Of a stretch of DNA of 64,000 bases, positions 1-45,000 are shown one piece after another. Made by a program: the position numbers. The stretch comes from Octopus vulgaris. Its lineage: Eukaryota. How positions within the stretch are numbered: position 1 is the stretch's first letter; each line of letters opens with the position of its first letter. The DNA lies in NCBI GenBank assembly GCA_951406725.2, contig OX597825.1:76446001-76510000 (forward strand). Reading direction: 5' to 3'.

Positions 1-3000
1 ACTTTAGCATTTTCTAGAAAGTGCAGTTGAAGCAAAACAGTATATCTTCAGTAGTGAATACAGTTCTATATTTAAGAGATGAGGAATTATGTACATTATT
101 TACATTTGATGGATATTTGTCCTTATCTTGTTTGTTGTTAACACGTATCAGCTGATATACCCTCCAAGCCTTCATCAGGTGTCTTGGGGAAATTTCGAAC
201 CTGGGTTCTCATTCCTCAGGTATTTTTTGATGTTGTTGTTGTTGTTGTTGTCATTATTCAGGTCACTGCCTGGAATCAAACTCGGAATATTGGGGTTAGT
301 AGCCTGTGCTCTTAACCACTATGAAATATAGTTATAGAAATTACATATATTGATGGAAAAAAATATATATACCATTTATACAAACAGAAATCATTTTATA
401 TTTATGATACCATAATGTAATGTAGGGAAAAAATTTAAGTATTTCCTCGAAAGTGCAGCTGTCATAGTGGTTAAGAGTATGGCGACTAACCCCAAGATTC
501 TGAGTTCGATTCCAGGCAGTGACCTGAATAATAATAATAAAAATAATAATAATAGCATTGAAAAATACCTTAGGAATGATAACCCAGGTTCGAAATTTCT
601 CCAAGACACCTGATGAAGGCTGGAGGGTATATCAGCCAAAACGTGTTAACAACAAACAAGATGAGGACAAATATACATAATGTAAATAATGTTCAGTAGT
701 GAAGAATGAAGAATCTGAACATTCAAACTTTGTTTATTTACAGTTGGTTTATTCATAATAATTGTCTGACCTATGTTTCAATTGCATTAATTGCATGTTG
801 TAATTCAAATATCAAACCTATTTCAACAGTATATTGAAATTATTACTGAATTAATAATGCTTTATATTGTGTTGCTTCACTGTTTTATACTCAATCTACA
901 CTAAGGAATTCCAGTGGTAGATACAGCAACATCTGTGTAATATCAGGTACATTTTCAAACCCCAAGACAAAGAGAAAAAATAGACAAAAAAGGAAAACCA
1001 AAATAAGAAGTACAAAAGCATACAAAGAAGAATTGTGCAACAAGGGACTACACAATTAATTCCATGTAGTCACAACAGAAGTTGCTGGAAAAAATAGGTA
1101 GGATTGCCTGAAGAAAAGAACACTAAAAAAAGAGACTGAGAGTACTGTACTGGCAGCACAAGACCAAGCTTTGGCCATGAACTGGAATGAGCAAGTGTCT
1201 CTGTTGTGTTGCATCTGTAATAGACTGGATGAAACCATTACCCATATCACAAACGTATGCCATAGACTTGCGCAAAACCACTACAAGTTGTGGGGACATG
1301 ATCAGGTAGTGAAAGAGCTGCATTGGAAACTGTGCAAAAAGTGGGGGCTAGTGAGAGGCAAGATGTGATATGAGTACAAACTGCAGAGAGTGGCAGTGTC
1401 GGGGACTTGCAAAATTCTCTGGGATTACCCAATCCAAATATATCAGGTGCTAGAGAATAACAGACTGGGCCTAGTGGTGGTCGTTAAGAGGCACTACATG
1501 TGCTATATAGTTGGTGTTGCATGCTCCTTTGTCCCATGAATAATCAAGATGGAAGGTGAAAAAATAGATGGCTAGAATAATCAGGAAAGTATTAGATAAC
1601 TGAAAAGAATGGATAGCATGGTACAGTAGACTGCAGGTTGCAAGCCTGCTATGCATGCAGAACTCCAGGAGTTCAAACACAACCTGTGATGAAAAGAAAT
1701 GATGATGATGATGATAATAATAATAATATCAACAACAATTAGATTCTGTCTTGATAATGATTTCTTTATTAATCACAAGGAATTTACATTGAGTGTGTGT
1801 GTGTGTATGTGTGTGTGTGTGTGTGTGTGTGTGTGTGTGTGTGTGTGTGCATATACTAATGGTTTCAAATTCTGGCTTAAGGCCTGTAATTTTAGGAGGT
1901 GAGGCTTGTATGATTTCATCAACCTTAGTGTTCAAATGATTTAATTCCATTGAGCCTGGAAAGATAAAGAGCAAGGCCATATCATACTGGGATTGCCTTT
2001 GCCTGTCTTTTTAATGTGCATAGAGTACTATGTGTCAAGTGTCAAAGTTATCACTGAGCAATGCGAGATGAAATATGTTGCTTAAAAACAATATGCACCA
2101 TCTAGTAGAGGGATTGAAACTATGATCACTAAGTTGTGAATGCAACACCCTAACCACAAAGCCATACACCCCAGTAGCAATAAAAATAATGATGCTAATA
2201 ATGATAATAATAATAGATTGATTTTAAAAAATACAATTTATTTTTTTAAATGGTTTTATACTAAGATTTTTTGTAAGTTAAAAATAATGAGAAATTATTC
2301 CATATATTATTTTGAAATTATTCATTATGGGGTATATTTTTCAAATTTTCTGGGTGATGATGTCACTGTCTAAAAAAGTAAGATACAGTTTCTGAAATTT
2401 AAAAAAATCATGCCAAACTACCAAGCATTAAAATTTTATCTTAATATATATTTGTCAGGTTATGTGTTGAGTTGTTCAATACGAGGATTATCAACAAGGT
2501 GAGGAGTTCTTTTTATGCAAGTTCTTCATATATATGGATTTCTAGATCTGAATAGAATGGTTGTTGTGTGGGTTTATTGATGTAAACTGAACTGGGATTT
2601 TTCATATGGCAATATCCATCTTCAACAAGATCTTGAGATTTAAGCTGTGAAGATGGTAATTCTTGATTGCGTTTGCTGATACAAACTGGAGTAGTATTTT
2701 GCATGGAGTAATAATGATTTTCATTTACATCTTGAAGTTTTGATGTGTTACCTCTGTTTACACTGTTTCTGAACACTTTCTTTCTGCAATAGACAATACA
2801 TACATACATATATATATATATCCACACACACACACACACAGAGAGAGGCACACAGACACACATTTATATAAATAGATAGATTGATAGATATATAGATAGG
2901 TAGATAGGTATATAGATAGATATAGATAGTCAATTCAAATAAATGATTAATATTAAAAATTAACAATAACAGATAAGAAGACATACTCAGGGAATGTATT

Positions 3001-42000: not shown

Positions 42001-45000
42001 GAGAAAGGTACTGTTTGTTTTTAGGATTTGTACCATCCTTATTTACAAATATTTTCTAGTTTATCTGCACTTTATTTATATCCTCCTCCTCCTCATCATC
42101 ATCATCATCGTTTAATGTCTGTTTTCCATGCTGGCATGGGTTGGACAGTTTGACTGAGGTTTGGAATGCCAGCAGCTGTACCAAGCTCCAATCTGATCTG
42201 GTAATGTTTCTACAGCTAGATGCTCTTCCTAACGCCAACCAATCCGAGAGTGTAGCGGGTGCTTTTTACATGCCACTGGCACAGGAGCCACTCAGGTGAG
42301 CCTGGCATTGATTACATTTGGATAGCGCTTTTTACATGCTGCCAGCAAGCTAGCATCAGTCACATTTGGATGGTGCTTTTTACATGCCAGCAGCATGGAA
42401 GCCAGTCAGGCAGCCCTGGCATTGATCATATATGGATGGTGCTTTTTACGTGCCACTTGAATGGGAGCCAGTCAGGGGGCACTGGCATCGACTATGTTTG
42501 GAGGATGCATTTTATATGCCACCAGAACAGAAGCCAGTCAGGAAGCATTGGCCATAGTTATGATTTGGGTTTTACTTGACTCAACAGGTCTTCTCAAGCA
42601 TCTAGGGTACTTTTAAAACATAACTTCTTTACGATTCACTAAGGCGGGTCTTTTTTCTTCAAAGCTTGGTTCAAATGCTCTAATTGCTGACAGTAGACTT
42701 GAACATTGATTGTTGCATTAGACGGTAACAATTCAAAGTGAAATACTCCTTTGCAATCCCACCAGATAGAGAGAAGAACCTTTTTCCTATGAAGTTCCCT
42801 TCTTGGCTGTGGTTGAGCTTTTTCCCTTTTACCAAGCCGCTGTTTACGACATTTAACATTTCGATAGAAGATCCATTTTTCGTCACCAGTCACAAGTCTA
42901 TCCAAAAAGGGTGAAATGAGTTCACGAGAATGGAGAAGAGCAGATGTCAAGATTTGTGGTTGCTTTTGGGCAATTCATGAGGCATCCATTTTCCAAGTTT
43001 AGGAACCTTTCCAAGTTGTTAAAGATAACGATGAATAGTTGTATGGTTTAAACTAAGCTTTATTGCCAATTCTTCAACTGATAATCAGGATTTTCTTCAA
43101 GTAATGCCTCAAAGAGCATATCATCAAACTCAACTGGATGTCCTCTATTCGATCTTCATTTTCAAGGCTGAAATCTCCACTTCTGAATTTTGCAAACCAT
43201 CTTCTGCAAGTTCTTTCATTCAAGCATTCTTTCCCATAAACTGAGTGTATGTTTCGAGTCACTTCGGCTGCAGAGTTTCCTGTTTTTATACTCATAAAGC
43301 ATTATGTGCCTCAAATGTTCTTTGGATACTTCCATATTAGAAAGGGTTTTAATCAAAAAAATTTTAATTCTATTATCCTGTAAAATAATATTTAATTAGT
43401 TTAAATGTACACAAATGCATAAAAATATATTTAAATTCCATTAAACATTCTAAAATGCTGTTAAATTTAATTCAATTTTAAAAAAGGTAAAATTAGGAGA
43501 GAACTTATGGGGTGACCTGATACAATAGAAACTGACCTGGAAACAAATTTCTTGATCATACACAGCCATACTCAGTGATTTCACAAACAAATAATAAAAA
43601 TAACAACAAGAACTTACTTGCAAAATTAAGACAAATGAAAACCAAAATACTCCAACAGGAAAGAAATAACATGGTGGTATATGGAATGAAGTGGATCTTC
43701 TTGACAATTTTTATATCAACTATTCTTAGAGATGAGCATTATCAGTTTCCTTATTTTTATCGTATTTACAAACTGTAAAGATAAAAAGAGATAGAGTCCT
43801 TTGTCAGTTGATATAATACCAAATGTTTTTTTATAATTCTTGACACTTCAAATGATTTTGTGTTTATAGGGGAACAAAAAAAAATTGAAAGCTTGTAGGA
43901 AATGTGAGGTTCTATTAAAATATTTGTTCAATTCTTTCTAAGTGCCATGTCTGTTCTATGCATTGATCATATCCTAACCTCTGTGTTTTAACCGAACCTC
44001 AATGTTCTAATTGAGCATGTTGGTAGAGCACAGACAGTCTTTCTCCTCTTAGAGTTCCCTCCTATGTTTGCCTGTCTTCTTCCTTATGCTATGTGCTGTA
44101 TCATCACTGTAAGCTGTTGTCTTGTTTCTGCACCATTCCTCAGTACATCTTAAGATATAGACTACATTCCTAATCTTACAGTTAACCTGTGGGTTCATCG
44201 TATGTGTTATACAATTGTTCTCCATACATGAGGACTTATTGAAAGTTATATACTCTACAGATCAGGGATTTCATATTTGTGCTTTATATCCTATAGCAAG
44301 AATATCCTTGAACAAGACACTTCACTCTCCTTGTTTCTCTTTCTTTCCCTCTCTTTCACTTTTTCTCTTTCTGCCTGTCTCTACATGATTTATGCATTCA
44401 AATCTCAATATGAATAATAATCTCAATTTCAATTATACTAAATTAAGGATTTAATGGATATCAAATGAAACACTTATGACTTATTTCATTGTCATCATAT
44501 TGCATGATACTTGTTCTAAGATACTTCACCTTGACACAACACAAGATCATCTTGTATTGTTTCATCGTCATCATGTTCCTTTAACGTCCGTTTTCCATGC
44601 TGGTATGGGTTGGACGGTTTAACTGGAACTGGCAAGCTGATGAGGTGCACCAGATTCCAGTCTAATTTGGCATGGTTTCTAAGGCTGGATGCCCTTCCTA
44701 ACACCAACCACTTTACAGTGTGTGCTGGGTGCTTTTAACTTGGCACTGCATGATATGAATGTATATACATATGTCCGTGTGTATGTGTGTGTGTGTGTGT
44801 GTGCATGAGCATATGTGGGTGTTTAACGTCCGCTTTCCATTCTAGAATGGGTTGGACAGTTCAACTGGGGTCTGGGAAGCCCGAAGGCTGCACCAGGCCA
44901 GTCAGATCTGGCAGTGTTTCTACAGCTGGATGCCCTTCCTAATGCCAACCACTCCGTGAGTGTAGTGGGTGCGTTTTATGTGCCACCGACACAGGTGCCA

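Follow-up and report, generated by a model that had tools for sequence, protein, structure and literature searches.

Structure of the gene

Our study examined a gene on the minus strand of a stretch of 64,000 nucleotides (nt) from Octopus vulgaris (GenBank assembly GCA_951406725.2, contig OX597825.1, forward-strand positions 76,446,001 to 76,510,000). The whole of this stretch is referred to throughout as the window, and the number of undetermined bases (N) in it is zero. The gene spans 41 kb (2513..43672), mostly intron filled with the relics of mobile elements, and its ten exons encode a predicted type I membrane protein with three beta-sandwich modules in the ectodomain and a cytoplasmic tail that carries six tyrosines. 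An earlier note, made from the sequence alone, had proposed these exons together with their lengths and phases, and the proposal was borne out both by the splice sites and by an exon-by-exon match to a public protein.

The search for exons was made on the minus strand from 43672 to 2513. Pieces bounded by AG...GT and open in the required phase were sought, starting from the exon lengths in the earlier note, and all ten exons were recovered at its coordinates. For exons 5 to 8 a pyrimidine-tract filter left one candidate for exon 6, four for exons 5/7 and four for exon 8, and the splice sites were consensus-like in two of the four candidates for exons 5/7 and in one of the four for exon 8. Exons 2, 3, 4 and 9 were chosen from longer, unfiltered candidate lists by their consensus splice sites. 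The exon lengths total 1347 nt, or 448 codons and a stop, and the start phases of exons 1 to 10 are 0, 1, 0, 1, 0, 1, 0, 1, 1 and 2. All nine introns run from GT to AG with good pyrimidine tracts at their acceptors (18/18 splice sites canonical), and none of the six codons split by introns is a stop. The exons are listed below with the number of whole codons identical to those of P0001, the Octopus sinensis protein described in the next section; the sequons are those for N-glycosylation.

Exon 1: 43618..43672, minus strand, 55 nt; ATG, hydrophobic signal-peptide-like start, donor GTAAGT; 18/18 codons as in P0001.
Exon 2: 36831..37036, minus strand, 206 nt, phase 1 to 0; initial part of module 1, containing W-D-V-T-V-C, two cysteines and the sequons NYS and NIS; 67/68 codons.
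Exon 3: 33988..34072, minus strand, 85 nt, phase 0 to 1; end of module 1, with two cysteines; 27/28 codons.
Exon 4: 26913..27118, minus strand, 206 nt, phase 1 to 0; initial part of module 2, containing W-N-L-E-V and F-W-L-E-T-V as well as the NKS sequon; 67/68 codons.
Exon 5: 23100..23193, minus strand, 94 nt, phase 0 to 1; final hairpin of module 2, with Y-S-C ... H-E-C and the sequon NQS; 25/31 codons.
Exon 6: 18860..19092, minus strand, 233 nt, phase 1 to 0; covers the first six predicted strands of module 3 and carries the NIS sequon; 77/77 codons.
Exon 7: 15561..15654, minus strand, 94 nt, phase 0 to 1; final hairpin of module 3, with E-Y-G-C ... Y-S-C; 31/31 codons.
Exon 8: 10989..11036, minus strand, 48 nt, phase 1 to 1; short stalk that carries the NES sequon; 15/15 codons.
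Exon 9: 9617..9671, minus strand, 55 nt, phase 1 to 2; predicted membrane-spanning helix; 17/17 codons.
Exon 10: 2513..2783, minus strand, 271 nt, stop TAA at 2515-2513; predicted cytoplasmic tail of 89 residues with six tyrosines, including those of YYSM, YCHM, YINK, YSDL and YEEL, disordered in the structural model (predicted local distance difference test, pLDDT, <50); 88/89 codons.

Exon 2 has a second possible acceptor, an AG 12 nt inside the first, from which the exon would start at 37024 instead of 37036. Splicing there would keep the frame, remove four residues and give the sequence ...N-F-A-N-I-Q-A-T-S-W, the consensus that the paralogs show at their N-terminus; the upstream AG (37036) is the one used by both the NCBI model and the earlier note. 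Beyond the donor of exon 4 the frame remains open for 32 codons into intron 4 (26816-26912, minus strand; open reading frame (ORF) 26817-27143), and the C-terminal end of the LOC115217916 model of O. sinensis (P0023, 212 residues) is a homologous read-through peptide. Judged from sequence, it is possible that retention of intron 4 yields a secreted isoform with two modules; alternatively, the start of the intron may simply be conserved between recent duplicates.

Correspondence with a public gene model

When exon 6 alone (77 residues) was used as a query, it matched a protein of 448 residues, ‘uncharacterized protein LOC115217915 [Octopus sinensis]’ (P0001), at 100 % identity, and also two paralogs. 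Compared codon by codon with P0001, the window gene is identical in 432 of 442 whole codons and in all six split codons, which corresponds to 97.8 % protein identity. The 2.2 % that differs points to a very close relative or a different individual as the source of the window sequence. A tblastn search of the 64-kb window with P0001 returned nine exons at the coordinates listed above, with E-values from 7e-55 to 2e-5, and no match outside the exons of the gene. The exon it missed was exon 8, whose 15 codons were all identical in the direct comparison. A chance origin of the ten-exon frame is rejected because exon 6 alone retrieves the 448-residue NCBI protein, and that protein in turn finds the exons in the window. 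On this sequence comparison the window gene is real as a gene model and is the counterpart of O. sinensis LOC115217915, publicly annotated yet unnamed and uncharacterized. The gene had been described as hidden, which does not hold, because NCBI annotates the corresponding 448-residue protein in O. sinensis.

No paper was found for six LOC identifiers of the family in a literature search of main texts. Searches that combined the PLAT domain with octopus, with extracellular, tandem or mollusc, with type I or ectodomain, and with signal peptide, transmembrane or invertebrate found no description of such a receptor. The coral protein in the PLAT-mentioning part of PMC4890752 is of the multi-pass PKD1/REJ type.

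The differences from the LOC115217915 protein are unevenly spread, as exon 5, with 31 codons, holds six of the ten amino-acid differences (binomial P 1.8e-5). At four of these six positions the residue of the window is also found in paralogs, and one change creates the NQS sequon. At the level of sequence, the cluster suggests that paralogs have exchanged sequence by gene conversion or that the hairpin closing module 2 is under diversifying selection.

Architecture of the predicted protein

The best reading of the product, based on hydropathy and a structural model, is a glycosylated type I membrane protein consisting of a signal peptide, three tandem beta-sandwich modules of about 100 residues, a stalk, a single helix and a disordered tail of about 90 residues. 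Mean Kyte–Doolittle hydropathy is 2.19 for exon 1 and 3.25 for exon 9, and the membrane helix of exon 9 is directly followed by R-K-K, as read from P0001 and exon 10. The full-length protein was modelled with AlphaFold2 from the P0001 sequence and a 16-row family alignment. The model has a mean pLDDT of 66.7 and contains three all-beta modules of 7-8 strands each, in which pLDDT is mostly 70-90 per 10-residue block (range 58-91), together with a helix at 333-367 and a tail of low confidence (pLDDT <50). The type I layout put forward in the earlier note, with its signal peptide, stalk, helix followed by R-K-K and multi-tyrosine tail of about 90 residues, agrees with both lines of evidence.

The modules measure 97, 100 and 109 residues and are encoded by exon pairs of 206+85, 206+94 and 233+94 nt, each consisting of a phase 1-to-0 exon and a phase 0-to-1 exon, so that the description of three two-exon modules of about 100 residues bounded by phase 1 was confirmed. 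The other sequence features that had been noted were likewise all found: W-x-(V/L/I)-x-(V/L) near the start of exons 2, 4 and 6, two cysteines each in exons 3, 5 and 7, and six ectodomain sequons (NYS, NIS, NKS, NQS, NIS and NES). A seventh sequon, NNT, lies across the junction of exons 5 and 6, as read from P0001, and two more cysteines in exon 2 bring module 1 to four. No catalytic domain was detected by Pfam in the family proteins, in keeping with the protein having been called non-catalytic.

The exon plan and phases shared by the three modules argue that they arose by copying of a single unit, as do a W-x-hydrophobic-x-hydrophobic start that is in register and a Y-x-C hairpin at the end. 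Profile similarity between modules 1 and 2 and between modules 2 and 3 is in register, though weak.

Family and evolution

Searching with P0001 as the query returned 16 homologous proteins, and a profile of their alignment returned 22. The 22 belong to three species, O. sinensis, O. bimaculoides and O. vulgaris, and each bears the name ‘uncharacterized’ or ‘hypothetical’; UniRef appears to give one of them, P0008, a name that begins ‘Vitellogenin doma...’. These homologue searches used a word index, by which relatives outside Octopus may have been missed. With the tail exon as query, a filter-free HMMER scan covering 1.84 billion representatives gave four matches at E<=0.001, of which P0001 and P0017 (a paralog tail of 115 residues) belong to the family and P0018 and P0019 were set aside as unrelated repetitive proteins. 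As far as seen in these sequence searches, the family is restricted to the genus Octopus, and the lineage-specific character supposed in the earlier note is consistent with the finding of only Octopus proteins among the family matches.

Most members lie on one contig of chromosome size per species (79.8, 68.5 and 89.6 Mb), and by this sequence evidence the family is a multigene one arranged in gene clusters. Most paralogs have a fourth module of about 115 residues between module 3 and the stalk, which the window gene is without. P0004 and P0006 contain module 2 in duplicate, the short model P0024 has module 1 twice, and P0020 (1009 residues) looks like neighbouring genes fused in one model. 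In the window, no relic of a fourth module and no second copy of the gene were found outside the ten exons at E<=1, beyond matches at chance level, and intron 7 was found to hold no fourth-module relic.

A maximum-likelihood tree was built from 16 rows, with the short or fused models P0015, P0017, P0020 and P0022-P0025 left out. The tree contains five cross-species orthologue groups with support of 100/100, and therefore the paralogs appear to be old and maintained. Its topology places their origin before the split of O. bimaculoides from the O. sinensis/O. vulgaris pair. P0001 stands alone on a branch of 0.41, with no O. bimaculoides or O. vulgaris orthologue in the set examined. The window gene keeps the family-invariant residues W116, W119, C198, C211 and C307 and the K-N-M-x-T block. 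On these sequences there are at least six paralog lineages in the three Octopus species, conserved and clustered.

Cytoplasmic tail

The tails of 11 family proteins were compared, nine of which are complete; P0002 ends before the motifs and P0020 stops right after the membrane helix. Every one of the nine complete tails contains Y-x-N, followed 18-26 residues on (19 in most) by a terminal Y-x-x-L/P, usually after acidic residues. The terminal motif takes the form Y-x-x-P in three of the nine (P0005, P0007 and P0017). Outside this pair the tail diverges among paralogs; the YSDL site of the window tail is not kept in them, and paralog tails also contain YANM, YWGL and YEDL. Because the remainder of the tail diverges, the two tyrosines look selected. 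No NPxY motif is present.

Several classes of docking site are known for motifs of this kind. Among SH2 domains, pY-x-N is preferred by Grb2/Drk-type proteins, pY-E-E-I/L by the Src type, pY-x-x-P by the Crk/Nck type and pY-x-x-M by PI3K p85, and Y-x-x-hydrophobic motifs also act in sorting. The immunoreceptor tyrosine-based activation motif (ITAM) has the form YxxL/I-x(6-12)-YxxL/I, and the corresponding inhibitory motif (ITIM) the form [SIVL]xYxx[ILV]. With its type I layout, lack of a detected enzyme domain and conserved cytoplasmic tyrosines, the modelled window protein has the layout of non-catalytic tyrosine-phosphorylated receptors.

Directly 3' of the stop codon, at 2439-2495 on the minus strand, the sequence weakly resembles the extreme C-terminal end of P0007, a paralog with a longer tail (E 0.08, 68 % over 19 residues, with one stop). 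To judge from this match, the ancestral tail may have been longer and the segment a remnant of it.

Fold of the ectodomain modules

Module 3 was modelled alone by AlphaFold2 from an alignment of the module-3 parts of 12 family proteins, which gave a structure of 109 residues and eight strands with a pLDDT of 75.9 and a predicted template modelling score (pTM) of 0.71. In a Foldseek comparison of this model with the PDB, 33 of the 38 listed matches were pancreatic lipases and lipase-related proteins, lipoprotein lipase, lipoxygenases or Rab6IP1, with probabilities of 0.95-1.00, query template modelling (TM) scores of 0.43-0.63, E-values from 2.2e-3 to 4.4e-2 and 9-20 % identity. We take the common element of these 33 targets to be the PLAT/LH2 domain, which is C-terminal in lipases and N-terminal in lipoxygenases. 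The remaining five of the 38 were C2-type proteins (probability 0.13-0.69, query TM 0.15-0.33), and no Ig, FN3, TNF or C1q fold was among the 38. The predicted structure thus supports a PLAT/LH2-like fold for module 3, one that superposes better on PLAT-bearing proteins than on other beta-sandwiches. For modules 1 and 2 we infer a fold of the same kind from the shared exon plan, size and strand count.

A number of results weigh against this assignment. No Foldseek match of module 3 reaches E<=0.001 (best 2.2e-3), and the model was built on 12 similar sequences. The aligned part of the Foldseek targets is probably their PLAT domain, because the 110-134 aligned columns fit one such domain, a reading taken from column counts. 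Module 3 is the only module that was folded individually, and comparison of the modules by profile was weak, with local P-values of 0.018 (modules 1 and 2), 0.027 (modules 2 and 3) and 0.2. Sequence methods did not recover the domain: Pfam PLAT (PF01477) was matched at E<=10 by none of the seven window exons searched, none of the 16 family members and none of the 12 module-3 pieces. In a sequence search of the PDB the family profile gave a single match, to a membrane segment (E 1.4), and the module-3 profile gave none at E<=10, while the ESM Atlas returned no usable match for either the whole protein or residues 116-325. With the full-length model, Foldseek produced a mixed list at TM about 0.1-0.15.

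That full-length list was headed by single-chain TNF-family trimers (E 3.4e-5), followed by pilin, ferlin C2 and LILR/KIR Ig proteins, the last of these with a probability of 0.15-0.54 and TM about 0.1-0.15. In our judgement it mainly mirrors the presence of several modelled beta domains in a row, and would be uninformative on the fold of a single module. A TNF/C1q-like jelly roll was considered and rejected: the top full-length match, APRIL-BAFF-BAFF, has a TM of only 0.13 and a root-mean-square deviation of 19.7, and the TNF-like reading was dropped because the listed module-3 matches include no TNF fold. Other Pfam results were equally unspecific. Searched exon by exon, the seven window exons matched no family; the full-length family proteins gave weak matches driven mostly by the membrane segment (TMEM154, Insulin_TMD, EphA2_TM and the like), and the module-3 pieces matched six unrelated families at E 0.03-1.2. 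No Ig or FN3 Pfam family was found in the 16 family members.

The earlier note had suggested strongly divergent PLAT folds for the modules. For module 3 this stood by predicted structure (33 of 38 listed Foldseek matches) and found no counterpart in sequence profiles, and an ordinary Ig or FN3 fold, which the note had named as the opposing outcome, was absent from the listed matches of this module. The note's account of PLAT as a cytosolic domain was incomplete, since the domain works outside the cell in secreted lipases, the proteins that gave the best structural matches. The exon phases and the W-x-L ... Y-x-C pattern, read from the sequence alone, had pointed to the fold class that the module-3 model supports, where profile methods found nothing.

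Surrounding sequence and mobile elements

Other elements noted in the window are the following.

37732-41074, minus strand (that of the gene), intron 1: long terminal repeat (LTR)-type retroelement with long open frames, gag-like, aspartyl protease and RNase-H-like RVT_3.
42639-43301, minus strand, intron 1: mariner-type transposase relic (Transposase_1, HTH_48).
61927-62589, plus strand: mariner-type transposase relic (Transposase_1, HTH_48).
27716-29068, plus strand: long interspersed nuclear element (LINE)-type reverse transcriptase (RVT_1 E 1.3e-27 at 27.7-28.3 kb) with a PHD-like finger.
12.2-12.8, 16.3-17.2 and 30.8-32.5 kb, in introns: LINE-type copies or fragments, with several similar copies in the ORF list.
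58219-59184, minus strand, upstream of the gene: ISXO2/IS1595-like DDE transposase frame of 321 codons (E 7.7e-16).
62810-63954: (TA)n microsatellite of about 572 units, 1.1 kb.

The reverse-transcriptase and integrase-like frames of the element at 37732-41074 had no Pfam match at E<=0.001. Shorter tracts of the TA, CA and TCTA types fill the introns and give rise to long pseudo-ORFs of the kind Y-I-Y-I or C-V-C-V. Upstream of the gene, 44-64 kb contains transposase relics and the (TA)n tract only, and there is no second family member in the window.

Discussion

Taken together, we consider there to be about an even chance that the window gene belongs to a genus-restricted, clustered family of non-catalytic type I receptors with PLAT/LH2-like ectodomain modules and a tyrosine-signalling tail. 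In such a receptor the PLAT-like modules would bind an extracellular ligand, which by analogy could be a lipid surface, a lipoprotein or a protein partner. Once clustered, the receptor would expose its tail to a cytoplasmic tyrosine kinase, and the conserved pair of Y-x-N and Y-x-x-L/P, once phosphorylated, could recruit SH2 adaptors, with Grb2/Drk-type proteins docking at pY-x-N. The overall action would resemble that of a non-catalytic tyrosine-phosphorylated receptor, and its signalling could be immune or sensory. The signalling part of this reading is weakened by the motifs of the window tail, which has no canonical ITAM (YSDL and YEEL are 4 residues apart, not 6-12) and no tyrosine that fits the ITIM pattern.

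Among known systems, the closest structural likeness is to the PLAT/LH2 domain of secreted lipases. Pancreatic lipase, PLRP1/2 and lipoprotein lipase gave the best module-3 matches (E 2.2e-3 to 4e-2, probability about 1.0), at 10-20 % identity over ~116-134 columns; both domains are eight-stranded beta-sandwiches of about 110 residues and both are extracellular, here by prediction. In pancreatic lipase the last hairpin of the PLAT domain is closed by a disulfide. The octopus protein differs from these enzymes in having no lipase catalytic domain and no detectable sequence homology to them, and it has the module three times over, tethered to the membrane by a helix that leads into a signalling-type tail. 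LOXHD1, a pure tandem PLAT array, and polycystin-1 are proteins in which PLAT modules occur with no lipid enzyme joined to them, and the earlier note had named both. In both they are cytoplasmic; LOXHD1 lacks a signal peptide and a membrane helix, and polycystin-1 is a multi-pass protein. Neither was among the 38 listed module-3 matches. C2 domains, as in ferlins, extended synaptotagmin and plant CAR proteins, are also eight-stranded beta-sandwiches and gave weaker matches in both Foldseek searches; they differ in their lower module-3 scores relative to PLAT-bearing proteins and in being cytoplasmic.

In overall organization the protein is more reminiscent of the LILR, KIR and CD28-type receptors, with which it shares a type I layout, tandem beta-sandwich modules of about 100 residues, phase-1 intron borders, tyrosine motifs in a short, disordered tail, paralogs that are clustered and change fast, a variable number of modules and the lack of an enzyme domain. 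However, their modules have the Ig fold, whereas module 3 is PLAT-like, and the octopus tail lacks a canonical ITAM or ITIM; no homology is implied. A bolder version of the receptor reading, which we offer tentatively and regard as doubtful, is that octopuses possess a receptor family of their own. In it, a lipase-type PLAT domain would have been recruited as a repeated extracellular recognition module and combined with a two-tyrosine SH2-docking tail, in parallel to the Ig-based immunoreceptors. Its likely ligands would be lipid surfaces or poorly soluble hydrophobic molecules, such as microbial membranes seen by haemocytes or contact cues at the skin and suckers.

The same ectodomain interpretation is shared by an alternative that we consider unlikely, in which the protein is an endocytic or scavenger receptor whose PLAT-like modules capture lipid particles, lipoproteins or membranes and whose Y-x-x-hydrophobic motifs are AP-2 sorting signals and not SH2 docking sites. 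Lipoprotein lipase and pancreatic lipase use their PLAT domains to bind lipoproteins, GPIHBP1 and colipase, and the best structural matches of module 3 being secreted lipases fits such a role, as do the four Y-x-x-L/M motifs of the window tail (YYSM, YCHM, YSDL and YEEL) and the YANM, YWGL and YEDL of paralogs. The most conserved feature of the tail is, however, Y-x-N together with the terminal motif, which is Y-x-x-P in three of nine tails and there falls outside the sorting consensus, and the absence of NPxY points the same way. If the likeness to PLAT were instead a product of convergence or of model error, the modules would be generic beta-sandwiches of an adhesion or structural surface glycoprotein, and the tail tyrosines would have no signalling role. 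The failure of Pfam and PDB profiles to find PLAT homology, the modest Foldseek E-values of module 3, the Ig-type LILR/KIR, C2 and TNF-like matches of the full-length model and the variation in module number among paralogs, as in adhesion families, are all compatible with this. It is nevertheless a distinctly improbable explanation of a module-3 list as one-sided as that obtained, with 33 of 38 listed matches PLAT-bearing and none Ig or FN3, or of a two-tyrosine pattern kept in nine of nine complete tails despite divergence of the remainder.

Finally, the gene might not work at all, being an annotation artefact or a decaying paralog with an open frame by chance. Its solitary position on a long branch (0.41, with no O. 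bimaculoides or O. vulgaris orthologue of P0001 in the set), the missing fourth module of most paralogs and the introns riddled with transposon relics could be taken in this sense. But a 1347-nt frame is intact over ten exons in two genomes, with 97.8 % protein identity and 18/18 canonical splice sites, and the family-invariant residues are retained, which makes a non-working gene very improbable indeed.

Invertebrate surface receptors are usually assigned by known domains (Ig, LRR, lectin, EGF), and families that are negative by profile stay ‘uncharacterized’. The octopus ectodomain appears to reuse a lipid- or protein-binding fold that is otherwise found on lipid enzymes, in polycystins or as cytoplasmic repeats. 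If both the fold and the tyrosine signalling prove true, the family would be a clear example of the co-option of a domain into a type I receptor and would provide a testable receptor candidate for cephalopod immunology or contact chemosensation.

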